Origin: Alphaproteobacteria bacterium
Lineage (GTDB): Bacteria; Pseudomonadota; Alphaproteobacteria; SP197
Assembly (NCBI GenBank): GCA_009694045.1
Contig: SHVY01000002.1
Span: forward strand, 39,491 to 103,490
Length of the DNA: 64,000 bases
Direction: 5' to 3'
The notes below the pieces were generated by a model. The model did not search any database. It saw only the letters and a program-made list of their open reading frames with translations, and was not told the origin of the DNA. Below, one piece after another: positions 8,010 to 62,132 of the stretch. Every line of letters starts with the position of its first letter. Position 1 is the first letter of the stretch. A program made the translations under genes and the position numbers.

Positions 8010-8412
8010 GCCCTCCCGCGCGATGCCCGCACCCTAGCCAAACCGCTCGATTTGCGAAAGCGGGGGCCGAACCTATATACTTCAAGTGTCGGGCGGGAAA
8101 CCGGCCGACTATGGCGATAAACACTGCGTGGAATAAGCGGAGCGGACCCGGGGGCAGTACCCGGCGCCTCCACCATCACTCGATCTCGCGGCCCGGACGT
8201 TGGGCCGTGGGATGGGAAACCAAGGGGGCGAACCAGGATCGACGCACGCGGTAAAGGCGCAACTTTTGCCCGGTATGATTCCGCCGTTATCGGGTCGCAT
8301 CTACAAACGCCAATGATAATGAGGCGTTCGCTCTCGCTGCATAAGCGTTAGCGCGGTACGGGGGGCACCGGGCAACAGAAGCCCCCCAACGCTTTCTCGG
8401 GCGCAGGGTACC

Positions 8413-8904
8413 ATGGCCAAGGACGTGATCAGGTACGACCAGTTGATGCAGGACGCGATGCGGGGCGTCGTCGTCCAGGTTCTCAAGACCGCGGTGGCGG
8501 AAGGCCTTCCCGGCAAGCATCATTTTCTCATCAGCTTCCGCACCCATTATCCGGGCGTGGATGTGAGCGAGGATTTGCGGGGCCGCTACCCTCAGGATAT
8601 GACCATCGTCCTGCAGTACCAGTATTGGGACCTCAATGCCGACGACCATAAGTTCTGGGTGACGCTGAGTTTCAACAAGGTGCCGCGGCGGCTGGTGATC
8701 CCGTTCGCGGCCATCACCGGCTTCGCGGATCCCGAGGCGAAGTTCGATCTGCATTTCGCCCCGCGCGAGGTGGTTGAACCGCCGGCGAGGCCGGTCGGCC
8801 GCGTTGCCATGCCGGCCACGGCCATCGCTTCGGCGGCGCCGTCATCGGTGCCGCCGTCGGGCGATGGCAACGTCGTGCCGCTCGACACGTTCCGCCGCAA
8901 ATAG
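8413..8904 (+). CDS. SspB-like ClpXP adaptor (alphaproteobacterial stringent-starvation-protein-B family)
   Basis: Resembles SspB-alpha N-terminal domain (..VVVQVLKTAVAEGLPGKHHFLISFRTHYPGV..) with a disordered C-terminal tail. Confidence 0.5.
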   Translation: MAKDVIRYDQLMQDAMRGVVVQVLKTAVAEGLPGKHHFLISFRTHYPGVDVSEDLRGRYPQDMTIVLQYQYWDLNADDHKFWVTLSFNKVPRRLVIPFAAITGFADPEAKFDLHFAPREVVEPPARPVGRVAMPATAIASAAPSSVPPSGDGNVVPLDTFRRK

Positions 8905-8928: not shown

Positions 8929-10329
8929 ATGAGCAAGGCCAAGCGCGTGCGCGTGGAGACCGATTCGCTCGGACCGATCGACGTTCCCGGGGACCGCTAC
9001 TGGGGTGCCCAGACCCAGCGCAGCCTGGAGAACTTCAAGATCGGCGGCCAGCGCATGCCCGAGCCGCTGATCGCCGCCTTCGGCGTGTTGAAGCGGGCCG
9101 CCGCGCAGGTCAACCGCGACCTCGGCGTGCTCGATCCGAAGCTCTGCGCCGCCATCGCCAAGGCCGCCGACGAGGTGATCGACGGCCGCCTGATGGATCA
9201 TTTTCCCCTGGTGGTCTGGCAGACCGGCTCGGGAACCCAGACCAACATGAATGCCAACGAGGTGATCTCGAATCGGGCGATCGAGCTCTTGGGCGGTGTC
9301 GTCGGCTCGAAGGCGCCCGTCCATCCCAACGATCACGTCAACATGGGGCAATCGTCCAACGACAGCTTCCCGACAGCGATGCACATCGCGTCGGCAGTCG
9401 AGATCAAGTCCCGGCTTCTGCCGGCGCTCGCCAAACTGCATCGGGCGGTCGCCGCCAAGGCGAAGGCGTTCGCCAAGATCATCAAGATCGGCCGCACCCA
9501 CCTGCAGGACGCGACGCCGCTCACCCTCGGCCAGGAGTTCTCGGGCTACGCCAAGCAGATCGAGTTCGGCATTGCCAGGGTGGAAGCCGTCATGCCCCGA
9601 CTGCTGCGCCTCGCCCAAGGCGGCACCGCCGTCGGCACCGGGCTCAACGCGAAGAAGGGCTTCGACGTGAAGTTCGCGCGCGAGGTCGCCCGTCTCACCA
9701 AGCTGCCGTTCAAGACAGCCGACAACAAGTTCGAGGCCATGGCCGCCCACGACGCCATCGTCGAGGCGTCCGGCGCGCTCAATGTCCTCGCCGTGTCCCT
9801 CAACAAGATCGCCAACGACATCCGCCTCCTGGGCTCGGGCCCACGCTGCGGCATCGGCGAATTGATCTTGCCGGAGAACGAGCCGGGTTCGTCGATCATG
9901 CCGGGCAAGGTCAATCCGACCCAGTGCGAGGCGCTGACCATGGTCTGCGCCCAGGTCATGGGCAACCACGTCGCCATCACCATCGGCGGCGCGCAAGGGC
10001 ACTTCGAGTTGAACGTGTTCAAGCCGGTGATGATCCACAACCTGCTGCAATCGATTCGCCTGATCGCGGACTCGTCGGTCAGCTTCACCGACAACTGCAT
10101 GGTCGGCATCAAGGCGGACGTCGCCCGCATCAACCGCCTGCGCGACGACTCGCTCATGCTGGTGACGGCGCTCAACCCCTACATCGGCTACGACAAGGCG
10201 GCGAAGGCAGCGAAGAAAGCCCACGCGGAGGGCACAACCCTCAAGAGCGCGGCCCTGTCCCTGGGCTACCTGACGGCCGCGCAGTTCGATCAGTGGGTCC
10301 GCCCGGAGAAGATGATCGGGCCTAGGTAG
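8929..10329 (+). CDS. fumC: Fumarate hydratase class II
   Basis: [15 protein letters not shown] signature; full-length 466 aa; TAG stop. Confidence 0.95.
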
Positions 10330-14311: not shown

Positions 14312-16521
14312 TGGCCGATCCGGCGTTCGCCGTCGCGGCCGTTGACCGCGACCAGCCCTATCTTTCCGGCCTGAATCCCGAGCAGAAGCGCGCGGTCCTC
14401 GCGACCGAGGGTCCCGTCCTCGTCCTGGCCGGCGCCGGCACCGGCAAGACCCGGGTCCTCACCACCCGGCTCGCCCACTTGGTGGCCAGCGGCAAGACGA
14501 CTCCCTTTGGCCTCCTGGCGGTGACCTTCACCAACAAGGCCGCGCGCGAGATGGCCGAACGGGTCGGCGCCCTGCTGGGCCGCCCGACCGAAGGGATGTG
14601 GATCGGCACCTTCCACGCCATTGCCGCCCGTATTCTCCGGCGTCACGCCGAGCTCGTCGGCCTGAAGTCGACCTTCACCATCCTCGATACCGACGATCAG
14701 ATCCGTCTGGTCAAGCAGGTGCTGGAAGCTCACGACATCGACGAGAAGCGCTGGCCGGCGCGCCTGGTGCTGTCGCTCATCGAGCGCTGGAAGGATCGCG
14801 GGCTCGGCCCCGACATGGTGCCGCGGGAGGACGATCAGAGCCTCGGGCCTCGCCGCGTGGTGGACCTGTATCGCGCCTACCAGGAGCGCCTGCTTACCCT
14901 CAACGCCGCCGATTTTAGCGACTTGCTGTTGCACTGCTTGCGCCTCTTCACCGCCCACCCGGACGTGCTCGGCGAGTATCAGAATCGGTTCCGCTACATT
15001 CTGGTGGACGAATACCAGGACAGCAACGTCGCCCAGCACCTATGGCTTCGCCTGCTCGCCCAGGCCCACCGCAACCTGGCCTGCGTCGGCGACGACGACC
15101 AGTCGATCTACGGCTGGCGCGGGGCCGAGGTCGGCAACATCCTGCGCTTCGAGCGCGATTTCGCCGGCGCCGAAGTGATCCGGCTGGAGCGCAATTATCG
15201 CTCCACCGGCCACATCCTGGGCGCCGCCGCCGGCCTCATCGCCCACAACGCGGGCCGCCTCGGCAAGACCCTTTGGACCGAAGGCGATGCCGGGGAGAAG
15301 GTCACGATCCGCGGCGTGTGGGACGAGACCGAGGAGGCCCGTCAGGTCGGCGAGGAGATCGAAGCCGGCCACCGCGCCGGGGCGGCCTTGGCGTCGTTCG
15401 CGATCCTCGTGCGGACCGGGGCCCAGACCCGCGCCTTCGAGGAGCGGCTGATCACCATCGCCGTGCCCTACCGCGTGGTGGGCGGCTTGCGGTTCTACGA
15501 ACGGCAGGAAATCCGCGACGCCATCGCCTATCTCCGGGTGATCGCCCAGCCCGACGACGACCTCGCCTTCGAGCGCATCTACAACACCCCGCGCCGCGGT
15601 CTCGGCGATTCGGCGCTCGCGGTCCTGCATACCATCGGCCGGGCCCGGGTCTGCTCCCTTTCCCGCGCCGCCGAGATCGTGGTCGAGACCGACGAGCTCA
15701 GCCCGCAACGGCGCACCTCCCTGCGCCGCCTGGTCGAGAGCTTCCGCCGGTGGCGCGGGGCCGCCGAGAGCATCCCCGCCGCCGAAGTGGCGGCACTGGT
15801 GCTCGAGGAATCCGGCTACACCGCCATGCTTCAGGCCGACAAGTCGCCGACCGCGCCTGGTCGTCTCGAGAACCTGCAGGAGCTGGTCCGCGCCGTCGCC
15901 GAGTTCGCGCGCCTGGCGGAGTTCCTCGAGCATGTGAGCCTGGTGATGGATGCCGCCACCGGCAACGGCGCCGACATGGTCAACATCATGACCGTGCACG
16001 GTGCCAAGGGATTGGAGTTCCACACCGTCTTCCTGCCCGGCTGGGAGGACGGCATCTTCCCCCACCAGATGGCGCTCGACGAGAAGGGCAACGCCGGCCT
16101 CGAGGAGGAACGCCGCCTCGCCCATGTGGCGCTGACCCGGGCAAAGGTGCGGGCGCGGCTGTACTTCGCCGGCCGCCGCCTGGTCCACGGCCAATGGCAG
16201 ACGAACCTGCCCTCGCGCTTCCTCGCCGAGCTGCCGGCCGAACATGTGGAGCGCCAGGACTCCTTCGGCCAGACGCTCGGGAACGCCGGCCGTCCCAATC
16301 ACGGTATGCGGCGCGGCGACCACCACCGGGTGATCGCGGCGCCGGCGCCGATCGCCTACCAGCTCAATCCCGCTGCCGATGGCTTCCTGCCCGGAAACCG
16401 GGTGTTCCACCAGAAGTTCGGCTACGGCCGGGTGCGCGCGGCCGAAGGCAACCGGCTCGACATCGTCTTCGACAAGGCCGGCGAGAAGAAGGTGATGGCC
16501 GAGTTCGTCCAGAAGGCGTGA
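14311..16521 (+). CDS. uvrD: ATP-dependent DNA helicase, UvrD/Rep/PcrA family
   Basis: LNPEQKRAVLATEGPVLVLAGAGTGKTRVL Walker A plus the full set of UvrD helicase motifs. The start is the internal ATG at 14311. Confidence 0.9.
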   Translation: MADPAFAVAAVDRDQPYLSGLNPEQKRAVLATEGPVLVLAGAGTGKTRVLTTRLAHLVASGKTTPFGLLAVTFTNKAAREMAERVGALLGRPTEGMWIGTFHAIAARILRRHAELVGLKSTFTILDTDDQIRLVKQVLEAHDIDEKRWPARLVLSLIERWKDRGLGPDMVPREDDQSLGPRRVVDLYRAYQERLLTLNAADFSDLLLHCLRLFTAHPDVLGEYQNRFRYILVDEYQDSNVAQHLWLRLLAQAHRNLACVGDDDQSIYGWRGAEVGNILRFERDFAGAEVIRLERNYRSTGHILGAAAGLIAHNAGRLGKTLWTEGDAGEKVTIRGVWDETEEARQVGEEIEAGHRAGAALASFAILVRTGAQTRAFEERLITIAVPYRVVGGLRFYERQEIRDAIAYLRVIAQPDDDLAFERIYNTPRRGLGDSALAVLHTIGRARVCSLSRAAEIVVETDELSPQRRTSLRRLVESFRRWRGAAESIPAAEVAALVLEESGYTAMLQADKSPTAPGRLENLQELVRAVAEFARLAEFLEHVSLVMDAATGNGADMVNIMTVHGAKGLEFHTVFLPGWEDGIFPHQMALDEKGNAGLEEERRLAHVALTRAKVRARLYFAGRRLVHGQWQTNLPSRFLAELPAEHVERQDSFGQTLGNAGRPNHGMRRGDHHRVIAAPAPIAYQLNPAADGFLPGNRVFHQKFGYGRVRAAEGNRLDIVFDKAGEKKVMAEFVQKA

Positions 16522-17393
16522 GCGCGCTCTGGCGGATGACGCTCGCCTGCCCGGCCGCGGCGGTCGCTGCCCTGGTCGATGCCCTCGACGACGGCGTGGG
16601 CACCCTTGCGTCCTATCCCGACGCCGCCCCCGGTCGCTGGCGGATCGAGGCGATCCTGCCCTGCGCGCCGCAACGGGTGGCGATCGAAACGCGCCTCGCC
16701 CTCATCGCCGCGGCCCTCGGCATCGATCCGCCGCCCCTGACGATCGAGCCCCTCGCCGACGTGGATTGGCTCGCCCGCAACCGCGCGAGCTTCCCGCCCA
16801 TCGCCGTTGGCCCGTTCGTCGTGCATGGCGAGGGCGGGAGCGCGACGGGGCGCATCCCGATCCGCATCGACGCGGCCACCGCCTTCGGCACCGGCGAACA
16901 CGCGACGACGCGGGGCTGCCTCCTCGCCCTCGCGGTCGCGGTCCGGCACCGCCGCATCGCCCGCGCCCTCGATGTCGGAACCGGCTCCGGCGTCCTCGCG
17001 ATCGCCGCGGCAAGGCTCTGCCGTGCCCGGGTCCTGGCGGTCGACATCGATCCCGAATCGGTTATGGTCGCCCGACGCCACGTCCGCGTCAACGGGGTGG
17101 CCGACCTGGTGCGCGTGGCGCGCTCCGACGGCTACCGCGCAGCCCTGGTGGCGCGTGGTGCGCCTTACGATCTGGTGCTGGCGAACATCCTCGCCCGGCC
17201 CCTCGCCGCCATGGCCCTGGACCTCGCGCGGGTTCTGGCGCGCGGCGGTGTCGCGATCCTGTCGGGTCTTCTGATCGAGCAGGAGCCCTGGGTGCTGTGG
17301 CCGCAGCGGGCGCAAGGTCTCGCCCTCGCCCGCCGCTGGCGAATCGACGGCTGGTCGACCCTGCTGCTGACCCGGCGGGCCCCTAACCGCTGA
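16518..17393 (+). CDS. prmA: Ribosomal protein L11 methyltransferase
   Basis: PrmA-like sequence with SAM motif LDVGTGSGVLAIAA. GTG at 16518 overlaps the uvrD stop (GTGA); an alternative ATG lies at 16536. Confidence 0.7.
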   Translation: MSALWRMTLACPAAAVAALVDALDDGVGTLASYPDAAPGRWRIEAILPCAPQRVAIETRLALIAAALGIDPPPLTIEPLADVDWLARNRASFPPIAVGPFVVHGEGGSATGRIPIRIDAATAFGTGEHATTRGCLLALAVAVRHRRIARALDVGTGSGVLAIAAARLCRARVLAVDIDPESVMVARRHVRVNGVADLVRVARSDGYRAALVARGAPYDLVLANILARPLAAMALDLARVLARGGVAILSGLLIEQEPWVLWPQRAQGLALARRWRIDGWSTLLLTRRAPNR

Positions 17394-18516
17394 CCGGGTA
17401 GCCCATCGCCCGAGCCCACAGCATCTGGACCTGATGCACTCCGTGCTCGCTGATCTCGGTCATGTCGCGGTCGACGATGAACCGACCCCGGCTATAGCCT
17501 CGCGACCGCAGGCCGCGCTGCACCGCCTCGCAGATTCCCTTGTCTTCCCGCCACAGGGTATTGCCGCCGTAGTTCCGCCGCTCCTCGTTGATCGGCGCGC
17601 CGGGCCGCCGCAGGACCTCGTTGATCGTGCGGGTCGTCCCGACCTCGACCGGCTCGAACCGGAAGGCGACCATCTGCGCCTCGCCGGGCAGGACGTTCAG
17701 GGTGGTGTTGGGCCACAAGTACCAGAAGTCAACGCGCTGCGAGGAATCGTCGCGGCTGAACCGATACGCCCGGTTGTCGGGGTTCCCAGCCCGGCTCAGG
17801 CTGCTGATCCAGGTGTCGTGATTGGTGACCCGGTAGCTCTTGATGTCGACCAGGTCGACGAACGCCGGGTGCGCGGGCGCGCAGTGGTAGCACTCCATGC
17901 AGTTCTCGGCGAGCACCTTCCAGTTCGCCATCAGGTCGGCCGGCGGCGGCGCCGCGAGGTCGGGTCCGGCCGGGCCGGCATAGGCGAGCTCGGCCAGGAA
18001 CGGCACGTGTGCGGCGATCTCCTCGGCGAGGCCCGGATAGGTCTCGGCGATCGCCGCGGCCCCCAGGTCCAGGTTGACGAAATAGAAATCGAGCAGGCGG
18101 TCGACCTTCACCGGTTTCAGGCAGAACGCGCCGCCGTCGAACCCGGCGACGTTCTCGCTGCCCCGGGCACTCCTGAGCCGTCTATCGGCATGGTACGACT
18201 AGGCGTGATAGGGGCAGGTTATGACCTTGGCCCGGCCGCTGCCGCGCAGCAGTTCGTGGGCGCGATGCTGGCAAACGTTGTGGAACCCGCGCACCTCGCC
18301 GTCCTTGCCGCGGATCAGGAACACGCCTTCGCCGACCAGCCAGGTGGCGACGTAGGCGCCGATCTCCGCCAGGCGGCTGGCGTGGGTCACGTACTGCCAG
18401 GATCGGGCGAAGATCTTATCCTTCTCCTCGGCCAGGATCGCGGGGTCGGTGTAGACGCGGCCGGGCAAGGTATGCGCCCGCCGTGGATCGGCGATCAGGG
18501 GCTCGGTGTGGTTCAT
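17383..18516 (-). pseudogene. Rieske (2Fe-2S) ring-hydroxylating oxygenase alpha subunit interrupted by one in-frame TAG (18199-18201) at the Trp of the CPYHGW motif
   Basis: ORFs 18199..18516 and 17383..18111 are in the same frame. CQHRAHELL...CPYHA-TAG-SYHADRRL aligns with CRYHTWTYNLDGSL of the intact paralog at 19400..20596. Confidence 0.7.
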
Positions 18517-18562
18517 GCCCCATTATCACCGCGAATCGAGACCCTGCCAACCGCGCCGGGAC

Positions 18563-19314
18563 TCAAGCACGCACCCAGCGCACCTCGGTGTTGATCGAAC
18601 CATCGGACTCGAGCGTCATCGTCCGGTACCCGGGGCAATCCTCGATGTACGCCAGCGCCCCCGGTTCCAGATCGAACTGGGCCGCGGTCGACGGCGTGCC
18701 CATCAACCTGACGCCGCGGCGCAGCGCATCGACGGCCGCGTGGGCGTGGCCCCAGGCGAGACCACGCACATGGGCGTGGCGATCGATCACCCGGAACAGC
18801 CGGCTCCATCGGCCAGCGGGCAATAGTCCGCGCCGCTCCCCATCTGGATCGGATTGTGATGCAGGCAGATCAGCACCGGCTTCGTCGTCTGCCGGGCCAG
18901 CGTCCGGTCCAACGCGCCCAACCGTTCGGGGCCGAGGTGGCCGTGGTTCTGTCCCGGGATCGTGGTGTCGAGGAACAGGATGCGCCAGCCGCCAGCCGGC
19001 CACAGCGGCTCCGCCCGGATGGTACCGCCCGCGAGGCTCCGCGGCATGGCGGCGGGGTCGTCATGATTCCCCGGCAGGGCGAAGACCGGGACCTCCAGCC
19101 CCACGAGGATGGGGCGCAGACGGCGATAGGCCTCGAGGGAACCATCGGCCACCAGATCGCCGGTCGCCAGGACCGCGTCCGGCGGCCAATCCCCTGCCCT
19201 GGCATGGGCCACGACCCGGCCAAGGGTGGCCAGCGGGTCGACGTCCAGAACGCGTTCGCCCACCCGCGCGGTCAGGTGGCAGTCGCTGATCTGAACCAGG
19301 CGCAATGCAGCCAT
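18563..19314 (-). pseudogene. Metallophosphoesterase (CpdA-like cyclic-nucleotide phosphodiesterase) with a 1-nt frameshift near 18793-18806
   Basis: The N-terminal part (..GNHDD..ICLHHNPIQMGS..LADGAG) is in one frame. The C-terminal part (RLFRVIDRHAHVRGLAWGHAH...PSTAAQFDL...PGYRTMTLESDGSINTEVRWV) is in the +1 frame. Confidence 0.6.
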
Positions 19315-19399
19315 GCCTCACCTCCAACCCGGCGAAGGGTACCATTGCCCAAGCGGGCAGGACTTGCCATCATCCTGGGTGTTGTCGCGGAGACCCGTC

Positions 19400-20596
19400 A
19401 TGGCCCGACCCGTGCCCCGGAAACCCGAGATCGCTGAGCAGCTTCTGCCGCCGGCGGCGTACCTGTCCGACGCTTGGTTCGAGCGCGAGCAGCGCGAGCT
19501 GTTCTCCCGCGCCTGGTCATTCGCCTGCACCACCCCGGACGTGTCGGAGCCCGGCGACTATCTGGTCGTCCAGGTTGGCCGTTACCCGATGTTCGTGATC
19601 CGCGACCGGGACGGCGAGCTGCGCGCCTACCACAACATCTGCCGCCATCGCGGCACCCAGGTGCTGGAGGGCAAGGGCAATCAGCGCCACGGCATCGTCT
19701 GCCGCTACCACACCTGGACCTACAACCTCGACGGCTCCCTGCGCGGCCTGCCGAAGCACGCCGAACTGTTCCCCGACCTGGACGTGAAGCGCATCGGCCT
19801 GCACAAGGGCAGCCTCGGCGTGCTGGGCGACCTCGTGTTCGTCAACCCGGACCCGGACCCGGAGCCCTTCGCCGACTGGCTCGGCGGAATCGAAGGGACC
19901 CACATGTGGCCCCACCGCGTCGCCGGACTCTCGGAGAAGCGCCCAATCCGCTACGACATCGCCTGCAATTGGAAGTTGTTCTGCGAAAACGCGATGGACG
20001 GCTACCACCTGTCCTACCTGCACGACAAGACGCTGATGGGACCAGATTCGATGCGCCAGGATTGGGATGCGGTGGGTCGCCATTGGGTGTTCATCAGCTT
20101 CGGCGAATCGGCGAACCGGCAGGACACTCAGTATTCCCCGATTCCGGGCGTCGATGCCTCGGGCCGCCACCCGGTGGTTTGGCAGTTCTTCCCCAACAGC
20201 GGCGTGCTAGGGACCTCGATCTTCTTCTCGGCCTACACCATCGTCCCGGTCGCCCCCGAACGCTGCTACCTCGAACTGCGCACCTGGATGATGCCGATGG
20301 AGACCCAAAGGGAGGAGAAACGCGTTCGCCCCTCGGGCTCGTCGGGCCACGGCACCATCATGCCCGACGGCAAGCGGTTGATCTCGATCCCGACCCTCAG
20401 CGGCCACGCCATGGACTCCCTGGACTTCCAGATCGAGGACATGTGGATCTGCGAGCGTCAGCAGGGGGCGCTGCGCTCGCCGCGCTTCCAGGTCGGACCG
20501 CTCGCCGCCCGGGTCGAGACCGCGTTGACTTTCTTCCAGCGCAACATCCTCGATTTCGTCCCCCTCGACTCCCCGCTCTCGCGCGCCGCGGAGTAG
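19400..20596 (+). CDS. Rieske (2Fe-2S) aromatic-ring-hydroxylating oxygenase alpha subunit (GbcA/CntA-like)
   Basis: CRHRG..CRYHTWTY Rieske motif plus a C-terminal catalytic domain. Internal ATG at 19400. Confidence 0.8.
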   Translation: MARPVPRKPEIAEQLLPPAAYLSDAWFEREQRELFSRAWSFACTTPDVSEPGDYLVVQVGRYPMFVIRDRDGELRAYHNICRHRGTQVLEGKGNQRHGIVCRYHTWTYNLDGSLRGLPKHAELFPDLDVKRIGLHKGSLGVLGDLVFVNPDPDPEPFADWLGGIEGTHMWPHRVAGLSEKRPIRYDIACNWKLFCENAMDGYHLSYLHDKTLMGPDSMRQDWDAVGRHWVFISFGESANRQDTQYSPIPGVDASGRHPVVWQFFPNSGVLGTSIFFSAYTIVPVAPERCYLELRTWMMPMETQREEKRVRPSGSSGHGTIMPDGKRLISIPTLSGHAMDSLDFQIEDMWICERQQGALRSPRFQVGPLAARVETALTFFQRNILDFVPLDSPLSRAAE

Positions 20597-20691
20597 GCTC
20601 GGTGAATCCAGTGTTCTCGCCGCCGAAGAGCCCTTCCCCGCGCGGGCTCGAGGGCGAACGCCGCCGCCCGAGACGGTAAGGAGAGGGGGCG

Positions 20692-22713
20692 ATGCCGAAG
20701 ACCGTATTTCTCGGCGACGCCGAACTTGCGCGCCTCCTCGCCGCGAGCTCCGCGGGCATCTCGGTCGCGGACGTGCGAGAACTCGTCGCCGGCGTGCTGG
20801 CCGCGCCCGAAGGCTGGGACCCCGACGCCTGGTTGACGCTGGTCGCGCCGCGGCCGTCGCCCGAACTCGCCGAGCAACTTCGCGCCCTCAAGGCGACCCA
20901 GGGCGGTGCCGAGGATTCGGGCCCGAACGGCGCCACCCGCCTCGCGGCCTTGCGCGCGGAACTGGCGCGCCGCGGCTTCGACGGGTTCGTTGTGCCGCTC
21001 GCCGACGAGCACCAGGGCGAATACCTCCCGCCCCGGGCGCGGCGTCTCGCCTGGCTCACCGGCTTCACCGGCTCGTTCGGCCTCGCCGCCGTGCTGGCCG
21101 ATAGGGGTGCGATCTTCGTCGACGGCCGCTACACCCTGCAGGCCGAGGCCCAGGTCGACGGCGCCCTGTTCGAGCGTCATCACCATACCCAGAGCCCGCC
21201 CGAGGCCTGGCTCGCCGCTCATGCGAAGCCGGGCGCCAAGGTCGGCTTCGATCCCTGGCTCCATACCAAGAACGACGTGGAGAAGATTCGCTCCGCCCTC
21301 GCCAAGGTCGGCGTGACGTTCGTGGGCGCGTCCCCCAACCCGCTCGACACGGTGTGGTCCGACCAGCCGCCGCCGCCGATCGCCCCCATCGTCCCCCATG
21401 ACGAGGTCTTTGCCGGCCGCCCCTCCACCGCCAAGCGGCGCGACATCGCCGCCTTGATCGTCAAGGAGGGGGCCGCGGCCTGCGTGCTGTCGGACCCGGC
21501 CTCGATCGCCTGGCTGCTCAACGTCCGGGGCGGCGACGTGCCGAACGCGCCCATGCCCCTCTCCTTCGCCATCGCCCATGCCGACGGCCGGGTCGACCTG
21601 TTCGTCGATCGCCGCAAATTGGCCCCCGGGCTCGGCCAGCATCTCGGCCCCGACGTGGGGTTGCACGATCCCCTCGAACTCGGGTCCGGCATCGACGCCG
21701 CAGTCGCCGGCGGCCGGCGCTTGCTGTGCGACCCGCGCTCCGCTCCCTACTGGGTGTTCGAGCGGGTGCGGGCCGCCGGATCGGAGCCGGTCGAGGCCGC
21801 CGACCCTTGCGCACTTCCGCGCGCCCGCAAGAACCCGATCGAGCTCGACGGTACCCGCGCGGCCCACGTGCGCGACGGCGCCGCCATCACCCGCTACCTG
21901 GCCTGGCTCGAGGTTGCTGCCGCCACAGGCACGCTGACCGAAATCGACGCCGCCGATCGGCTCTATGCCGTGCGCGCCGGGGGGACGCTCTATCGCGGCC
22001 CGAGCTTCGACACGATCTCCGGCGCCGGCCCCAACGGCGCCATCGTCCACTACCACGCGACGCCGGAGACCAACCGCAAGCTGGAGCCGGGTTCGCTGTT
22101 CCTGCTCGATTCGGGCGGGCAGTACCTGGACGGCACCACCGACATCACCCGCACCATCGCCATCGGCACCCCGACGCCAGAGATGCGCCGGCATTTCACC
22201 GCCGTCCTCAAGGGCCACATCGCCCTCGCCCTCGCCCGCTTCCCGGTCGGGACCACCGGATCGCAGCTCGATGCGCTCGCCAGACAGCCCCTGTGGCAAT
22301 TGGGGCTCGACTACGACCACGGCACGGGCCATGGGGTCGGCAGCTATCTCAGCGTTCACGAAGGCCCGCACCGCATCTCGAAGGTGGCTAACTCGGTCGC
22401 TCTCGAACCGGGCATGATCGTCTCCAACGAACCCGGCTACTACCGCGCCGGCGCCTATGGCATTCGCATCGAGAACCTGATCGTGGTGGTCGCGGACGAG
22501 GGCGGCAAGCGCCCCATGCTCCGTTTCGAGACCCTGACCCGCGCGCCCATCGATCTCAACCTGGTCGATCGTTCCATGTTGACGGACACCGAGATCGCCT
22601 GGCTCGACGGCTACCACAAGGAGGTGCGGGAGGCGGTCGGACCATCCCTGGACGCGACTCAGGCGGCGTGGCTCGCGCAGGCGACCCGCCCGCTGGAACC
22701 GATGCCGGGATGA
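20692..22713 (+). CDS. pepP: Xaa-Pro aminopeptidase (M24B, aminopeptidase P)
   Basis: AMP_N and M24 domains (HGTGHGVGSYLSVHEGP) with a C-terminal PepP domain. GGAGAGGGGG RBS. There is a ~70-aa N-terminal extension. Confidence 0.85.
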   Translation: MPKTVFLGDAELARLLAASSAGISVADVRELVAGVLAAPEGWDPDAWLTLVAPRPSPELAEQLRALKATQGGAEDSGPNGATRLAALRAELARRGFDGFVVPLADEHQGEYLPPRARRLAWLTGFTGSFGLAAVLADRGAIFVDGRYTLQAEAQVDGALFERHHHTQSPPEAWLAAHAKPGAKVGFDPWLHTKNDVEKIRSALAKVGVTFVGASPNPLDTVWSDQPPPPIAPIVPHDEVFAGRPSTAKRRDIAALIVKEGAAACVLSDPASIAWLLNVRGGDVPNAPMPLSFAIAHADGRVDLFVDRRKLAPGLGQHLGPDVGLHDPLELGSGIDAAVAGGRRLLCDPRSAPYWVFERVRAAGSEPVEAADPCALPRARKNPIELDGTRAAHVRDGAAITRYLAWLEVAAATGTLTEIDAADRLYAVRAGGTLYRGPSFDTISGAGPNGAIVHYHATPETNRKLEPGSLFLLDSGGQYLDGTTDITRTIAIGTPTPEMRRHFTAVLKGHIALALARFPVGTTGSQLDALARQPLWQLGLDYDHGTGHGVGSYLSVHEGPHRISKVANSVALEPGMIVSNEPGYYRAGAYGIRIENLIVVVADEGGKRPMLRFETLTRAPIDLNLVDRSMLTDTEIAWLDGYHKEVREAVGPSLDATQAAWLAQATRPLEPMPG

Positions 22714-53655: not shown

Positions 53656-55683
53656 ATGCCGGACAGAAGAACGGTCGCGATAGTCGGACCTTCGCTCGGC
53701 GGCAAGACCAGCCTCTTGGAGAGCATCGCCTTCGTCTCCAAGGCGATCCAGCGCAAGGGCAGCGTCCGCGAGGGGACCTCGATCGGCGACTTCTCGCCCG
53801 AGGCTCGGGCGCGCCAGGGCAGCATCGAGGTCTCGGCCGCCCACGTCGCCGCCAACGGGGTCGATTACACCCTGCTCGATTGCCCGGGCTCGATCGACTT
53901 CGCGTCCGAGACCTACCACGCCCTGATGGGCGTTGATGCCGCCCTCGTGGTGGTCGAGCCGGTGGCCGAGCGGGCGATGACCCTGGCGCCCCTGTTCCAC
54001 GTCCTCAACCAGTTCCAGGTCCCCCACCTCATCTTCATCAACAAGATGGACCGCGCCTCGGCGCTGCTGCGCGACGTGATCCCGGCGATGCAGGCGGTCT
54101 CCGGACGGCCGTTGGTCATGCACCAGGTGCCGATCCGCAGCGGCGAGAGCGTGACCGGCTACGTCGATCTGGTGAGCGAGCAAGCCTATGCCTACCGCCC
54201 CGGCGCGCCGTCGGACCAGATCGCCCTGCCCGAGGAGGTCAAGGAGCGCGAGACCACGGCCCGCACCGAGATGCTCGAGCGCCTCGCGGATTTCGACGAC
54301 GCGATCATGGAGAAGCTGCTCGAGGACCAGGCGCCGAGCCCCGAGGAGATCGAGGCCAGCATGTGCAAGGACGTGGCCGACAACCAGCTGGTGCCGGTCT
54401 TCGTCGGCTCGGCCGAACGCGACCACGGCGTCCGCCGCCTGCTCGCCCACATGGCCCAACTGGTGCCGACGGCGGCCGCCACCGCCGCCCGGCGCAAGCT
54501 TGGGGGCAACGGCGCGGGGATCGCCCAGGCGCTCAAGACCTACATGACCGGCCAGGGCGGCAAACTCACACTGGTCCGCGTCTGGCGCGGCGCCATCGGC
54601 GACGGCGACATGGTGAACGGCCAGCGCGTCGGCGGCGTCTACCGCCTGATGGGGGCGCAGCAGCAGAAGATCGATCGGGCCGAGGCCGGCGACGTGGTGG
54701 CCTTGGGTCGCCTGGATTCCACGCGCACCGGCGAAACCCTCGCGGTCGGGGACAAGGCGCCCGATGCGCCGCTTCCCCGGCCCGAGCCCATGGCCCCGAC
54801 CTTCGCCATGGCGATCCACGCCCAGAAGCGGGACGACGACGTGAAGCTGTCCGGCGCGCTCGCCAAACTGCTGGACGAGGATCCGTCACTCGCGGTCGAC
54901 CACGATCACCAGACCAACCAGCTCATCCTGCGCGGCCAGGGCGACATCCACCTGCACATCGCCTTCGAACGGCTGAAGAACCGCTACAAGCTGCCGGTGG
55001 TCGCCGAGCGGCCGAAGGTCCCGTACAAGGAGGCAATCCGCAAACCGGTCATCCAGCACGGTCGCTTCAAGCGGCAGACCGGCGGCCACGGCATGTTCGG
55101 CGACGTCCATCTGGAGATCAAGCCGCTGCCGCGCGGCGCCGGCTTCGAGTACGGCGATCGCGTGGTCGGCGGCTCGGTGCCGCGCCAGTTCATTCCGGCG
55201 GTCGAGAACGGGGTGCGCGAGTACCTGGTGAAGGGACCGTTGGGGTTCCCCGTGGTTGACCTCTCGGTGACCCTGTTCGACGGCTCCTACCACAACGTCG
55301 ACAGCAACGAGATGTCGTTCAAGCTGGCCGCCAAGATGGCGATGACCGAAGGCATGCCGAAGTGCGGGCCGGTCCTTCTGGAGCCGATCTGGCATGTCGA
55401 CGTCTCGGCGCCCAACGCGGCGACCGCCAAGATCAACGCCCTGGTCAGCGGCCGCCGCGGCCACATCCTCGGCCTCGAGGCCAAGGACGGCTGGGAGGGT
55501 TGGGACGTGGTCTCGGCCCAGCTGCCGCAGACCGAGCTCCACGATCTGATCCTCGAGCTGCGTTCGCTCAGCCAAGGGGTCGGCACCTACACCAGCCGCT
55601 TCGATCATCTGGCCGAGCTCACGGGCCGTCTCGCCGACCAGATCGTCCAGGCCCACGCCGAAACCGACGCGAAGGCATCCTGA
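53656..55683 (+). CDS. Elongation factor G-like GTPase (EF-G paralog with divergent G domain)
   Basis: P-loop GPSLGGKTS; EF-G domains II-V (..VYRLMGAQQQKI.., ..HNVDSNEMSFKLAAKMA..). GGGGAGGA RBS before the ATG at 53656. Confidence 0.8.
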   Translation: MPDRRTVAIVGPSLGGKTSLLESIAFVSKAIQRKGSVREGTSIGDFSPEARARQGSIEVSAAHVAANGVDYTLLDCPGSIDFASETYHALMGVDAALVVVEPVAERAMTLAPLFHVLNQFQVPHLIFINKMDRASALLRDVIPAMQAVSGRPLVMHQVPIRSGESVTGYVDLVSEQAYAYRPGAPSDQIALPEEVKERETTARTEMLERLADFDDAIMEKLLEDQAPSPEEIEASMCKDVADNQLVPVFVGSAERDHGVRRLLAHMAQLVPTAAATAARRKLGGNGAGIAQALKTYMTGQGGKLTLVRVWRGAIGDGDMVNGQRVGGVYRLMGAQQQKIDRAEAGDVVALGRLDSTRTGETLAVGDKAPDAPLPRPEPMAPTFAMAIHAQKRDDDVKLSGALAKLLDEDPSLAVDHDHQTNQLILRGQGDIHLHIAFERLKNRYKLPVVAERPKVPYKEAIRKPVIQHGRFKRQTGGHGMFGDVHLEIKPLPRGAGFEYGDRVVGGSVPRQFIPAVENGVREYLVKGPLGFPVVDLSVTLFDGSYHNVDSNEMSFKLAAKMAMTEGMPKCGPVLLEPIWHVDVSAPNAATAKINALVSGRRGHILGLEAKDGWEGWDVVSAQLPQTELHDLILELRSLSQGVGTYTSRFDHLAELTGRLADQIVQAHAETDAKAS

Positions 55684-55684
55684 C

Positions 55685-55972
55685 ATGACCGAGCAGCCCG
55701 TCGTCCAGATCAACCTGCCGAAACCGCCGAAGGAGGGCGGCGGCGCCTCCCTCGTCTACATTCTCTACCTCTTGAGCTTCGTCCTCGGCGTCACCTTCCT
55801 GATCGGCGTGGTGCTCGCCTATCTCAACCGCGGCGAGGCGCCGGACTGGGTCAAGACCCACTACCAGTTCCAGATCCGCACCTTCTGGATCGGCTTGCTC
55901 TATGGCGCGATCGGCTTCGTCCTGGTGGCGATCGTCGTCGGCATCCCCATCCTGATCGCCACCGCCGTCTAG
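55685..55972 (+). CDS. Small two-TM membrane protein (DUF4870-like) ending at an in-frame TAG; probable interrupted gene, with its conserved-looking tail continuing to 56053
   Basis: The ATG is 1 nt after the EF-G-like stop. After the TAG at 55970 the same frame reads LIVRCIKGLKLVNRGEPVPNPTTWLF, ending at the TGA at 56051-56053. Confidence 0.55.
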   Translation: MTEQPVVQINLPKPPKEGGGASLVYILYLLSFVLGVTFLIGVVLAYLNRGEAPDWVKTHYQFQIRTFWIGLLYGAIGFVLVAIVVGIPILIATAV

Positions 55973-56138
55973 CTCATCGTCCGCTGCATCAAGGGCCTCA
56001 AGCTCGTGAACCGCGGCGAACCCGTCCCCAACCCGACGACCTGGCTGTTCTGAGACGCACATATGCGTTTCCCCCGTTGTCGGAGGGAACGTTTTTGTTT
56101 CTCCCCCGCTCCTCGTGGCAGGGGGGAGGGGGAGGGGG

Positions 56139-59100
56139 ATGCGCGCCACCGCGTCACGCCAGGAAATCGAGGTCTCCGCCTGGCTCAATGACCTCGCGCT
56201 TGACCAGTACGCCACCGCGTTCGCCGCGAACGACATCGACCGCGCGACGCTGGCGACCCTGACCGACGCCGACCTCAAGGAGCTTGGCGTCGCCTCCCTG
56301 GGCCATCGCAAGAAGCTGCTCCAGGCGATCGCGTTGCTCGGGCCGCACCCCTCGCCGTCCGCCGCCAGCTATACGCCCCGCCATCTGGCCGAGCGCATCC
56401 TGGCCGCCCGCGACACCCTCGTGGGCGAACGCAAGGAAGTGACGGTCCTGTTCGCCGACGTGCAGGGCTCCCTTTCCCTCATCGAGGGCCTGGACCCGGA
56501 GCAGTCGGCCGCGCGTCTCGCCCCGGTGATCGAGGCGATGATGGCGGCCGTCCACCGCTTCGAGGGCACCGTCAACAAGGTTCAGGGCGATGGGATCATG
56601 GCGCTGTTCGGCGCCCCCGTGGCCCACGAGGACCACGCGATTCGCGCCGGCTATGCCGCCCTCGCCATGCGCGACGCGATCGCCGCCCAGGCGGAGCGAA
56701 CCCGGCGCGAGCACGGCTACGAGGTGCGCGCCCGTGTCGGCCTGCACTCGGGCGAGGTGGTCGTGCGCGGCATCGGCACCGACCTGAGCGTGGATTACGA
56801 CGCCATCGGCCCGACCGTGCATTTGGCGAACCGCCTGGAACAGCTCGCCCTACCCGGCACCATCCGGATCAGCGCCGCGACCCAGCGCCTGGCCGCCGGG
56901 TTTCTCGCCGTGGCACCCCTGGGGCCGGTCCCGGTCAAGGGCCTGAGCGAGCCCATCGAGATCTTCGATCTCCAGGGCGCCACCGGTGCCCGCAACCGGC
57001 TCCAGGCCCTGGGCGAACGCGGGCTCTCTCCCTTCGTCGGTCGCGCGGGCGAGGTCGCGATGCTCGAACACGCCCTCGACCGCGCCAAGGGGGGCGAAGG
57101 CCGGGTCGTGGGCCTGGTCGGCGAGCCCGGGGTCGGCAAGTCGCGCCTGGCTTTCGAGTTCGCGCGCTCGCCGGGCACCGCCGGCTGCCTTGTTCTCGCC
57201 GGGAGCTCGGTGTCCTACGGTCGGGCAACGTCCTGGCTGCCCGTGATCGACCTGCTGCGCGCATACTTCCGGATCGACGCCGGCGACGACGACGACGAGC
57301 GCGCGGTCCGCGAGAAGGTGATGGGCAAGGTCCTGGCCATCGATCAGTCGCTCGCGCGGGCCGCGCGCATCGTGCTCAGGTTGCTGAAGGTCACGGCGGA
57401 CTTCCCCGAGTGGGACGCGCTGGAGCCGCCGCAGCGCCGCCGTATGACCTTGGATGCGATCCGCGCCCTGCTGCTCGCCGCAGCCGCGATCCAACCGCTC
57501 GTCCTGATCTTCGAGGATCTGCATTGGGCCGACGGCGAGACGTTGGCGCTGCTCGACGGCCTGATCGGGGGCATCGCCACCCATCGGGTGATGCTGTTGG
57601 CGACGCTCCGACCGGAATTCGCCCATGACTGGGGCGGACGCAGCACCTATGCACAGGCCGGCTCGACCCGCTGCCGCCCCTCGGCATCGCGGACTTGCTG
57701 ACCGCGCTCCTGGGCAATGACGCGAGCCTCGGCTCACTCAAGGCCCGGCTCGCCGCCATGGCCGGCGGCAACCCGCTCCACGTCGAGGAAGGCGTGCGCG
57801 CGTTGATCGAACAGGGTTCACTCGTGGGCACGCCTGCCGCCTACCGGTTCATCGGCGACATCGCGAACCTCGCGATGCCGGATGGCGTGCGCGCCATCAT
57901 CGCCGCGCGCATCGATCGCCTGACGCCGGAGCGGAAGCAGCTCCTTCAGGCCGCCTCGGTCGTCGGCAGCGACGTGCCAGTCGATCAACTCGCAGCCATC
58001 GCCGACCTCGATCCGGACACCCTGAAAACGGCGCTCGCGGCGTTGCAGGCGGCTGAGTTCCTCTACGAGACGCGACTGTTCCCAGATCGCCACTTCGCCT
58101 TCAAGCACGCCTTCACCCACGACGTCGCCTACGGCGGCCTTCTCCGAGCACGCCGCCGCGATCTTCACGCCCGGCTCGGCGCCGCGATCGAGGAGTCCCA
58201 AGGTGCCGGTGCCGAGGTTGAGGCCCTCGCCGGCCATTTCGAGCGCGGCGAAGTCTGGGACAAGGCCGCCCGCTACTGGCTCGCGGCAGCCGATCAGGCG
58301 AGGGGACGCTATGCGTATGCGCGCGCACTCGACGTCGGCAAGAAAGCCCTCGCCTGTGCGCAACACCCCACAAGCGACCCCGGTATCAAGCAGTCGATTC
58401 TAACGACCCTAGGCGATTTGGCGGGGTTGTATGGCGACTTCAATGACGCCAATGCTTGGTACGAGCAGGCTCTTCGCGTGCCCTGCTCGGAGGACGCTCG
58501 TCGGTCGATCGACAATCGGGTCCATCGACCATACTTCGCCGGGCCTGACGATGCGCGCGTCGCGTACCACACGCACGGATCGGGAGACGAGTGGGTGATC
58601 GTCTTCTGCCCAAGCCTCTATGAAGTTCGTATTTCCCAGCCGCTGCTCGAGTTGATGTGTCAAACGGTACAGGGTTGTCACGGTTCACCCGCGTGGCGAC
58701 GGACCCTCCGATCCGGCACCGGAGCCTTACACGTTGGCCGAGCAGGCCGCTGACTTCCGGCGGGTAATCGAGAAACTGGGATCTGGTTCCAAGACCGCGA
58801 TCGGGATCTCGCGCGGCGGCACTTTGGCTCTCATCTTGGCTCGAGATCATCCGGGCCTTCTGGATCGAATCGCGCTGGTCGGGACTCCCGTGGACGACTT
58901 GGTGAGCCCAGGATGCCTCTACCCGCGCCCCGACGCGCTATCCGAGAAAACCCTTCAAGCCGTCGAGGACGGAGATTTTCAAACCGCCGCGTCGATTGCC
59001 TCGCACAGTGTTTTCTCGGAGGACGGCTATTTCGATTTCGCCGAGAACTCCATTCGCATATGGCTGGCGCACGGGGAAGCCACGGCTCGCCGTTTGTTGA

Positions 59101-59369
59101 TAGGCTTCCATGGTCCGAACCCGGAATTGGACATCAAGCCATGGTTGGGAACGGTGCGAATACCCACGCTCGTGACACACGGCGTCAATGACCGGCGCGC
59201 CCCGTACGCGGTGTCGAAATACATAGCCAACCAGATTCCTGGGGCGTTGCACTTTGGCTTTCCCGGGCGCGGACACGAGCCGCTCTTCACGGCGCCGGCT
59301 GAATTCCTCGCCGTCCTTGACCAATTCATCAAGACCGGCACCGTGCCGTCCCCTACCCGATCAGGATGA
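56139..59369 (+). pseudogene. Large multi-domain signalling gene (SAM, class III adenylate/guanylate cyclase, AAA/STAND ATPase, TPR), running on without a stop into an alpha/beta-hydrolase domain; disrupted by two +1 frameshifts
   Basis: SAM region WLNDLALDQYATAFAANDID..LKELGVASLGHRKKL; cyclase region KEVTVLFADVQGS..FEGTVNKVQGDGIMALFGAP; AAA region GLVGEPGVGKSRL. Shift 1 at ~57651-57665: ..GGRSTYAQ / RLDPLPPLGIADLLTALLGNDASL..GGNPLHVEE. Shift 2 at ~58653-58661: ..SQPLLELM / KRYRVVTVHPRGDG...GISRGG nucleophile elbow. The ATG at 56139 follows a G-rich RBS. Confidence 0.55.
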
Positions 59370-60690
59370 ACACCCGGGTGTTGCCGCGGACCACGCTGAG
59401 GCTCATGCGGCTGGAGTTCTGGCGGGCAATGTCGAGCAGGGCTTCCGGCGTCGCCACCGGCTCGCGGTTGACGGCGACGATCACGTCGCCCGGCCGCAGG
59501 CCCGCCCGCGCCGCCGGGCTGCCCGGCACCACGTCGGACACCAGCACGCCGCCCTCGCCGTCCTCGTCCGGGGGCAGGGCCTGGAAGCTCGCGCCGGCCA
59601 GGAGCGGCACGGTCGCCGCCGTCGTGGCCGCGGACGCCGGCGCCGCCGCTTCGTGCTCGATCGTCGCCATCACCGTGCGCGGCACGCCGTCGCGCACCAC
59701 GTCGAGCGCCATGGAATCGCCCACCCGCAGCAGCCCGACCTTGTTCCGGAGGTCGAAGCTGCCGTCCACGGCCCGGCCGTTGGCGCCGATCACCAGATCG
59801 CCCGGCTGCAAACCCGCCTGGTCCGCCGGCGACCCCGGCTTGACCGCCACCACCAGGGCGCCCGCGGTCGAGGCGAGGCCCAACCCTTGCGCCAGGTCCG
59901 GCGTCAGATCCTGGGTGCGCACCCCAAGCTGGCCGCGATCGATCGAGCCGTGCAGGGCGATCTGTTCGGCGATCCCGCGCACCATGGTGACGGGGATGGC
60001 GAAGCCGATGCCGATCGAGCCGCCGCGGCCGAGGATCGCCGTGTTGATGCCGACCAGCTCGCCCGCCATGTTCACCAGCGCTCCGCCCGAGTTGCCGGGG
60101 TTGATCGAGGCGTCGGTCTGGATGAAGTCCTCGTAAACCTCGAGCCCGAGGCCCCGCCCCAGCGCGCTGACGATCCCGAGCGTCACGGTCTGGCCGATGC
60201 CGAACGGATTGCCGATCGCCAGCACGAAGTCGCCGACCTCCAGCGCGTCCGAATCGCCGATCGGAATCGCCGTCAAACCCTCGGCCGGGATGCGCAGGAC
60301 GGCGATGTCGGTTTCCGGATCGGTTCCGACCAGCTCGGCGGCGAAGCTGCGCTGGTCGCGGAGCGTGATACGGATCACGTCGGCGCCGTTGATGACGTGA
60401 TGGTTGGTGACGATCAGCCCTTGGTCCGCGTCGATGATGACGCCGGAGCCGGCGCTCGTCACCTCGCGGCTGCCGCCGTCGTCGGGCAGGCCGAAGAAGT
60501 TGCGGAAGAACGGGTCGGCGAACAGGGGATTGGCTGGATCGGCGATCGTCGCCTTGACCGCGACGTTGACCACGGCGGGGGTCACCTGCTTGATCATCGG
60601 CGCAAGGCTGGGCAGCGGCGCGGTCGCGGCCCCCGCCACGCCCGCCCATCCGACCACCGCCACCACGAGCCAAGCGCCCATTCGCCGCAT
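59353..60690 (-). CDS. degP: Periplasmic serine endoprotease DegP/HtrA (trypsin domain plus two PDZ domains)
   Basis: HHVINGAD..D..GNSGGAL catalytic triad context; two PDZ domains. Signal peptide from the ATG at 60690; alternatives at 60681 and 60705. Confidence 0.9.
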   Translation of the reverse strand: MRRMGAWLVVAVVGWAGVAGAATAPLPSLAPMIKQVTPAVVNVAVKATIADPANPLFADPFFRNFFGLPDDGGSREVTSAGSGVIIDADQGLIVTNHHVINGADVIRITLRDQRSFAAELVGTDPETDIAVLRIPAEGLTAIPIGDSDALEVGDFVLAIGNPFGIGQTVTLGIVSALGRGLGLEVYEDFIQTDASINPGNSGGALVNMAGELVGINTAILGRGGSIGIGFAIPVTMVRGIAEQIALHGSIDRGQLGVRTQDLTPDLAQGLGLASTAGALVVAVKPGSPADQAGLQPGDLVIGANGRAVDGSFDLRNKVGLLRVGDSMALDVVRDGVPRTVMATIEHEAAAPASAATTAATVPLLAGASFQALPPDEDGEGGVLVSDVVPGSPAARAGLRPGDVIVAVNREPVATPEALLDIARQNSSRMSLSVVRGNTRVFILIG

Positions 60691-60728
60691 CGCTTCGTCC
60701 TCCATCGCGGCCACTATATAGTGCGCCC

Positions 60729-62132
60729 GTGACGGTCGCGAACCCCCCCCTTCGCTCCGGCTGGCGCCGGTGGCTCGCCGCCTCCGCCGTGTACCGCGAG
60801 CGCGCCGTCCTCGTCGTCCTCGCCCTCGGGTTCGCGAGCGGCCTGCCGCTGGCCCTCAGCGGCGCAACCCTCGCCATCCGCCTGCGCGAGGCCGGGCTCG
60901 AGCTCGGCTCCATCGGCCTGTTCGCGGCCGTCGGCGCGCCCTACACCCTCAAGGTCCTGTGGGCACCGCTGGTCGATCACCTGCCGATCCCCGTGCTCAC
61001 GCGGGTCCTCGGGCGCCGGCGCGGCTGGTTGTTGGCAAGCCAGGTCGCCGTCGTGGGCGCGATCCTCGCCCTCGGCGGGGTCGATCCCGAAGGCGCGATC
61101 GGCCTGGTCGCGCTCCTCGCCTTCATCCTCGCCGCCCTGTCCGCGACCCAGGACATCGTGATCGACGCCTACCGGGTAGAAAGCCTGGAGGATCGCCAGC
61201 AAGGCGCCGGAGCCGCCATGGCGGTGTTCGGCTACCGGGTCGGCATGTTGGCCTCGGGTGCGCTCGCCCTGATCCTCGCCGAGCGTCTGCCCTGGGTGGC
61301 GGTCTACCTCGCGATGGCGGCCTTGATGGCGGTGGGCGTGTTCGCGACCCTCCTCGCGCGCGAGCCGGCCGGCGCCGCCGCCCGCGCAGCCGGCGTCCGA
61401 GATCGCGCCGAGGCCGCTCGCCTCGCCGGCCGCCTGGGACTCGCGAACGCCAGGGCGGCGGCGGCCTGGGCCTGGCTCTACCGCGCCGCGGTCCGCCCGT
61501 TCCTCGACTTCATGACCCGGTCGCGATGGCTCTGGGTCCTGCTGTTCGTGGTGCTGTACAAGTTCGGAGACGCTCTGGCCGGCTCCCTCGCCAGCGTGTT
61601 CTACCTCGATATCGGCTTCGCCAAGGACGAGATCGGCGCCGTCGCCAAGGTCTTTGGCTTCGGCGCGACCTTGGTTGGGCTGGCGCTCGGCGGTTGGCTG
61701 CTCAACGCCGTCGGTGCCGTCCGCGCGCTGCTGATCGCCGGCATCCTGCAGCTCCTCTCCAACCTGACCTTCGCCGTCCAGGCCGTGGCGGGCCCGGACC
61801 TGGGGTTCCTCGCCTTCACCATCGCGGCCGAGAACCTGGCCGGCGGGATGGGGACCGCGGCCTTCGTCGCCTACTTGAGCGGCCTGTGCAACGTCGCCTA
61901 CACCGCCACCCAGTACGCCCTGCTGTCGTCCCTCGCCGCGTTCGCGCGCACTCTTCTGGTCACCCCGGCGGGGTTCCTGGTTGAGCGCCTGGACTGGACC
62001 GGCGCGGCCGCCGCCGTTGGCCTAGGAGCCCTGCCCAATCTGCCCTGGATTGGCTTCTTCCTGCTCACCACCCTCGCCGCGGTCCCCGGGCTTCTGCTTC
62101 TCCTGGTCGTCGCGCGGCCGCGACGTGATTAG
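60729..62132 (+). CDS. ampG: Muropeptide permease AmpG (MFS)
   Basis: LGFASGLPLAL...GAPYTLKVLWAPLVD AmpG signature; ~14 TM. GTG start at 60729; TAG stop. Confidence 0.85.
   Translation: MTVANPPLRSGWRRWLAASAVYRERAVLVVLALGFASGLPLALSGATLAIRLREAGLELGSIGLFAAVGAPYTLKVLWAPLVDHLPIPVLTRVLGRRRGWLLASQVAVVGAILALGGVDPEGAIGLVALLAFILAALSATQDIVIDAYRVESLEDRQQGAGAAMAVFGYRVGMLASGALALILAERLPWVAVYLAMAALMAVGVFATLLAREPAGAAARAAGVRDRAEAARLAGRLGLANARAAAAWAWLYRAAVRPFLDFMTRSRWLWVLLFVVLYKFGDALAGSLASVFYLDIGFAKDEIGAVAKVFGFGATLVGLALGGWLLNAVGAVRALLIAGILQLLSNLTFAVQAVAGPDLGFLAFTIAAENLAGGMGTAAFVAYLSGLCNVAYTATQYALLSSLAAFARTLLVTPAGFLVERLDWTGAAAAVGLGALPNLPWIGFFLLTTLAAVPGLLLLLVVARPRRD

Follow-up and report, generated by a model that had tools for sequence, protein, structure and literature searches.

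The layout of the HOTT/Tic20 superfamily consists of one integral helix, a conserved charged loop, and two further integral helices, and the Pfam family PF09685 (DUF4870), now named “MamF_MmsF,” lies within this superfamily (PMC11628618). The 64-kb stretch of alphaproteobacterial DNA analyzed here (the window) contains a small gene with an in-frame TAG whose read-through product resembles these proteins. The read-through product has three predicted helices, the conserved helix 1-2 loop NRGEAPDW..HY.FQIRTFW, and the invariant Y/L/G/T, HY.FQIRTFW, and W..RC.KG motifs shared with DUF4870/HOTT proteins. The superfamily architecture (helix, charged loop, two more helices) was found only in the 122-amino-acid read-through product, the 95-amino-acid product being without most of helix 3. 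The locus differs from the described DUF4870/HOTT proteins in that the window allele is truncated within helix 3, and from MamF/MmsF in that its product is not a magnetosome protein. The findings reported below point to a plain, recent, and polymorphic nonsense mutation rather than to programmed read-through, recoding, or sequencing error.

Results

Structure of the truncated gene and coding character of its tail

An earlier note on this DNA had described a reading frame at 55685 to 55972 that begins 1 nt after an EF-G-like gene, ends at a TAG, and continues in frame to a TGA at 56051 to 56053, and these coordinates were confirmed (Table 1); the EF-G-like gene stops with a TGA at 55681 to 55683, and after a 1-nt spacer the ATG of the DUF4870 gene follows at 55685. 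The tail had been given as 27 codons, a figure that holds when the final stop is counted and is one too many for sense codons, of which there are 26. Translation through the TAG gives a product of 122 amino acids, and the peptides of its tail include GLKLVNR and GEPVPNPTTWLF.

Table 1. Coordinates of the truncated DUF4870 gene, its neighbors, and the other features of the window discussed in the text
Feature	Position	Strand	Remarks
thyX	7071-8009	-	Ends in TAG
fumC	8929-10329	+	Ends in TAG; FumaraseC_C profile matched over 1-53 of 54, to residue 463 of 466
Rieske oxygenase alpha-subunit gene, interrupted	17383-18516	-	TAG at 18199-18201, in place of the CPYH[GA]W tryptophan
Natural end of the interrupted Rieske gene	17383	-	TAG; Ring_hydroxyl_A match to residue 371 of 377
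Second Rieske oxygenase gene, intact paralogue	19313-20596	+	Ends in TAG
EF-G-like GTPase paralogue	53656..55683	+	675 aa, all five EF-G domains; separated by 1 nt from the DUF4870 gene downstream
Truncated DUF4870/HOTT open reading frame	55685..55972	+	95 sense codons plus premature TAG
Amber codon TAG	55970..55972	+	Replaces invariant Trp96 TGG; G>A transition at 55971
Stranded tail LIVRCIKGLKLVNRGEPVPNPTTWLF	55973..56050	+	26 codons; remainder of helix 3 and conserved C-terminal motif
Ancestral (true) TGA stop of the 122-codon gene	56051..56053	+	C-terminal end shared among homologues
1-bp deletion in the cyclase gene, relative to L002	57659..57660	+	Splits the SAM/guanylate-cyclase/AAA_16 gene
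HtrA-like protease gene	59353-60714	-	Ends in TAG
MFS transporter gene	60729-62132	+	Ends in TAG

Since the window has a GC content of 69.6%, and 19 of its 27 stop-to-stop open reading frames run on for at least 25 stop-free codons past the stop, the openness of the tail is by itself a weak signal. The evidence beyond chance is its coding pattern of GC content, the PF09685 match, and the alignment of homologues to its last residue. GC content at the first, second, and third codon positions was 0.58, 0.42, and 0.96 in the tail; 0.60, 0.37, and 0.97 over the 60 codons that precede the TAG; and 0.61, 0.36, and 0.96 over the whole 95-codon frame. A scan of the whole window for stops with coding-like sequence on both sides returned two sites, both TAG: the one at 55970 to 55972 (+) and one at 18199 to 18201 (-), in a Rieske oxygenase gene.

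Identity of the tail as a DUF4870/HOTT C terminus

With tryptophan at the stop position, the 122-amino-acid product matched PF09685 over profile positions 6 to 104 of 107 (hmmscan, 22.8 bits, E = 9.7e-5), just below the gathering score of 25; in the same profile search the 95-amino-acid product matched no Pfam family. PF09685 is also the precomputed assignment of the identical protein P0001 and of most homologues, and homologues at about 54 to 62% identity carry the NCBI name “DUF4870 family protein.” No NCBIfam model matched the DUF4870 protein.

A large protein collection contained 921 homologues, nearly all of 112 to 128 amino acids and a few of 133 to 179, and hundreds of them aligned as far as the last residue of the tail. 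In an alignment of 36 homologues, W96, R100, and G104 were invariant; I98, C101, K103, P117, and W120 were conserved in at least 90%; and all 36 proteins ended where the TGA of the window lies. The family consensus of the tail reads RCVKGLKxxxRGEPxPNPxTWMF. At the DNA level, 86 loci were compared, made up of 80 GTDB species genomes among the matches listed together with metagenome contigs. In every one of the 86 loci listed, the residue aligned to position 96 was tryptophan, encoded by TGG, and none of these loci had an internal stop; the C terminus lay within one residue of the window TGA in 84 of them. The closest GTDB representative among the matches listed was 60% identical, and neither the 120 homologues listed nor the 86 loci included a naturally short DUF4870 member.

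The earlier reading of the tail as the C terminus of a DUF4870-type membrane protein was thus borne out, since the PF09685 match needs the tail and the homologues align through its end. The motifs picked out at the time (KGL, RGEP.PNP, and a terminal W-x-F) all fit the family consensus, and the suggestion that the TAG occupies a tryptophan codon agrees with W96 in 36 of 36 homologues and TGG in 86 of 86 loci. The outcomes that had been named as refuting the proposal were absent, in that no homologue ended at the ...PILIATAV position and the tail was conserved. The family identifier offered, PF16159, was wrong; in the Pfam library used, DUF4870 is PF09685. Judged from these sequence comparisons, the tail is the genuine C terminus of a predicted 122-amino-acid DUF4870 (“HOTT,” Tic20/MamF-like) membrane protein.

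The AlphaFold2 model of the 122-amino-acid product (pLDDT 78) contained helices at residues 19 to 48, 54 to 83, and 86 to 110, with codon 96 inside the third. Because helix 3 spans residues 86 to 110, the TAG cuts it after 10 of its 25 residues and removes the tail. The 95-amino-acid product thus comprises, in the model, helix 1 (19 to 48), helix 2 (54 to 83), and a 10-residue stump of helix 3, and what is lost is the conserved C-terminal tail together with the final 15 residues of helix 3.

Origin of the stop by a single substitution

Three orthologous loci, L008 and L009 (JGI) and L010 (NCBI GCA_038920635.1), encode proteins 72 to 76% identical to the window product and have an intact 122-codon gene. 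The codons at the site are GTC TGG CTG in all three and GTC TAG CTC in the window, so the premature stop is attributable to one G>A transition at 55971. The window and these loci share the order DjlA, EF-G-like GTPase, DUF4870, and, further along, HtrA protease and MFS transporter. Relative to the orthologues, pN/pS was 0.41 to 0.45 in the tail and 0.44 to 0.57 in the body of the gene, values that are indistinguishable, and the tail had no indels relative to L008 to L010; because of these two features, the lesion is considered young.

A single nucleotide separates the EF-G-like stop from the DUF4870 start, and the two genes are therefore probably cotranscribed or translationally coupled. Their adjacency is kept in the close orthologous loci L008 to L010, with a 3-nt spacer, and is missing in about 80 other, more distant genomes among the matches listed. 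Strict scans for terminators and promoters at the DUF4870 locus gave none. By eye, a hairpin followed by a U-rich tract is visible at 56040 to 56098, just past the DUF4870 TGA, which the strict terminator scan did not call, and a G-rich run, GGCAGGGGGGAGGGGGAGGGGGATG, lies directly upstream of the start of the downstream cyclase gene (window 56100 to 56140, + strand).

TAG as a normal stop codon in the window

In the window, TAG is the stop codon of at least six genuine genes, whose Pfam domains finish a few residues earlier (Table 1), and the in-frame sequence past these stops is short or of noncoding character. Because these genes stop at family-typical ends, the genetic code is taken to be standard, and an alternative code in which TAG specifies tryptophan was rejected on the same grounds. 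The earlier note had drawn the same conclusion from fumC, correctly, as the FumaraseC_C match ends 3 residues before the TAG of that gene. ARAGORN found no tRNA gene within the 64-kb window, its only prediction being a permuted tmRNA. This two-piece tmRNA, of a kind typical of Alphaproteobacteria, lies just upstream of fumC at 8083 to 8435 (+) and has the tag peptide ANDNEAFALAA. RNA structure around and after the DUF4870 TAG was unremarkable, the predicted fold of 55940 to 56110 being no different from that of shuffled sequences (z = -1.39).

Alleles in the Lake Baikal assemblies

The exact 95-amino-acid product (P0004) was found in the Logan assemblies of SRR8561390 and SRR8561391, runs made from samples taken under the winter ice of Lake Baikal at depths of 1250 m and 1350 m, respectively, and in a 54.5-kb ENA contig. 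Independent assembly of the TAG from two samples makes a random read error unlikely. L001 was 100% identical to the window over 55117 to 60112, and the differences between L002 and the window were one SNP and one indel. The ENA set ERZ1305449, to which the 54.5-kb contig with the TAG allele belongs, also includes a 22.3-kb contig with identical gene context, and on this contig lies P0001, which is 100% identical over 122 amino acids and has tryptophan at position 96; the TGG allele of the 22.3-kb contig is known from this called protein. Because an intact version is present in the same set of public assemblies, the lesion is best regarded as an ordinary, recent gene-truncating mutation.

Disruptive polymorphisms comparable to the DUF4870 lesion were present in the neighboring Rieske and cyclase genes, in combinations that differed between assemblies. 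In the window, the cyclase gene is split into frames at 56139 to 57701 (520 amino acids) and 57695 to 58753 (352 amino acids), both on the + strand, and it is unbroken, at 871 amino acids, in L002 and in the 54.5-kb ENA contig. The 1-bp deletion is polymorphic between samples and unlinked to whether the DUF4870 gene has TAG or TGG: TAG occurs with the deletion in the window and L001 and with an intact cyclase gene in L002 and the 54.5-kb contig, and TGG occurs with the deletion in the 22.3-kb contig. Compared with L001 to L004 over window positions of about 15558 to 21522 and 55117 to 60112, the window was a mosaic of single-run variants: at the DUF4870 locus it was identical to the 1250-m assembly, and at the Rieske locus to the 1350-m assembly. 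This pattern suggests that the window sequence derives from several coexisting haplotypes or from a consensus or coassembly, and differing combinations of lesions are as expected of coexisting haplotypes or consensus mosaics.

The interrupted Rieske gene (fragment protein MSP81507.1, locus tag EXQ94_00895) has its TAG at codon 106, the tryptophan of CPYHA-W, within the stretch covered by the Pfam Rieske domain (39 to 124), and carries it in all four public contigs found. An exact-sequence search of the protein collection returned no intact allele with tryptophan at this position. In L003, from the 1250-m assembly, an extra 2-bp GG insertion lies downstream of the TAG, between 18134 and 18133; since a further frameshift thus follows the TAG in one sample, the gene looks like a decaying pseudogene, as far as its sequence can indicate. 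Other differences between the window and L003 were an in-frame polymorphism in the number of a 6-bp (GTCCGG-type) repeat at about 19845 to 19850, in the second Rieske gene, and two SNPs, both transitions, near 19871 and 19262.

Mutational context of the two TGG>TAG lesions

The window has two nonsense lesions, 38 kb apart, and each is a TGG>TAG change at a tryptophan position. From the codon usage of the window, and with transition and GC>AT biases varied over a range, the probability that a single nonsense change is TGG>TAG was calculated as 0.06 to 0.17; the post hoc probability of two in two is about 0.003 to 0.03, which makes the coincidence mildly unexpected. A mutational process specific to certain sites, or suppression, might lie behind it. 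On the opposite strand, the changes at 55971 and 18200 both turn the second C of CCAG into T, and the Rieske site lies within CCTGG (CCWGG, Dcm type). A C>T change in such a context is the pattern expected of 5-methylcytosine deamination. The shared CCAG context is weak evidence, because 75 of the 127 TGG codons are preceded by C. It is very doubtful that the two lesions are nonindependent, whether through a tryptophan-inserting amber suppressor or near-cognate read-through that makes TGG>TAG changes near neutral or through a sequence-specific hotspot.

Discussion

The locus is very probably an otherwise intact 122-codon DUF4870/HOTT gene carrying a recent amber nonsense allele (TGG>TAG, G>A at 55971) that segregates beside the TGG allele. 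In the mechanism proposed, a G>A change at 55971 turned the Trp96 codon TGG into TAG in the gene of a three-helix inner-membrane protein; translation would stop at codon 96, and the product would end 15 residues short of the end of helix 3 and have none of the conserved tail. The TAG and intact TGG alleles coexist in the natural deep Lake Baikal population of an uncultured alphaproteobacterium. Because both the end of helix 3 and the C-terminal tail conserved in the family are missing, the 95-amino-acid product most likely represents a null or strongly impaired allele. The persistence of this allele would be a matter of neutral or mildly deleterious drift rather than of adaptation.

The same observations bear on three other explanations. 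If the TAG were decoded partly or fully as tryptophan, by a suppressor tRNA-Trp(CUA) or by near-cognate read-through, full-length protein would still be made. The undamaged state of the DUF4870 tail is in keeping with such decoding, as is the fact that both in-frame stops in the 64 kb are TAG at an invariant tryptophan, with a chance of about 0.003 to 0.03. The base directly after the DUF4870 TAG is C, and a stop followed by C is a weaker termination context in Escherichia coli. This explanation is nevertheless highly improbable, given that at least six genuine genes have TAG at their family-typical ends with only short or noncoding-like sequence beyond, that none of the 86 relatives listed has TAG at codon 96, and that an intact TGG allele is present in the same ENA assembly set. 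The TAG-bearing Rieske gene has, moreover, gained a frameshift in one sample, as expected of a dead gene; the window holds no tRNA gene; and RNA structure past the TAG is not unusual (z = -1.39). An error of sequencing or assembly, with the organism truly having TGG, might be suspected from the TGG version in a public assembly, from the origin of the window in a metagenome-assembled genome, and from its mosaic relationship to the single-run assemblies. The TAG was, however, present in each of two independently assembled runs from different depths as well as in the ENA contig and the window, and recurrence of a substitution error at the same base across independent samples is very unlikely, which leaves little room for an artifact.

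The truncation might instead be functional or adaptive, either because the 95-amino-acid, two-helix form is active or altered or because loss of the gene is favored, with selection keeping the allele at high frequency. In line with this view, the TAG allele was the one assembled, and is probably the majority, in both winter bathypelagic samples, and other loss-of-function alleles segregate nearby. The deleted part, however, includes the invariant R100 and G104, the five residues that at least 90% of homologues share, and half a transmembrane helix; no naturally short member occurred among the 120 homologues listed or the 86 loci; and the data separate selection from neither drift nor hitchhiking. 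An adaptive truncation is therefore considered quite unlikely, and the recent, segregating nonsense allele is the reading adopted here.

With three disrupted genes in 64 kb, the window illustrates on a small scale how loss-of-function alleles segregate in a natural population of a deep lake. Combinations of lesions that differ between samples are relevant to inferences of gene content and metabolism from the source metagenome-assembled genome.

Programmed read-through and recoding, as in pyrrolysine UAG, suppressor tRNAs, and phage-type UAG reassignment, share with this locus an in-frame UAG followed by conserved coding sequence. The locus differs from such systems in that its stop is not conserved (none of the 86 loci listed) and replaces an invariant tryptophan, in that TAG is a normal stop in the window, and in that no stimulatory structure was detected; recoding or suppression at the DUF4870 TAG is thus unsupported. 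The lesion is of a known kind, with no new genetic code, recoding mechanism, or gene family involved. The features of a nonsense gene are all present: the conserved sense codon is one base away, homology extends to the stop of the orthologues, TAG is a stop, and the lesion is in the DNA. An ordinary amber nonsense mutation or incipient pseudogene likewise arises when one transition turns a conserved sense codon into a stop, with in-frame homology continuing to the ancestral stop; here the intact allele also occurs in the same public assembly set and in all orthologues, and TAG serves as a normal terminator elsewhere in the window. There is no difference in kind between the two, the only oddity being the second TGG>TAG lesion 38 kb away. 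Annotation pipelines flag incipient pseudogenes with “internal stop,” and the present locus should be annotated as a single DUF4870/HOTT gene, either pseudogene or truncated allele, that contains an internal stop, rather than as a 95-amino-acid hypothetical protein followed by an intergenic region.
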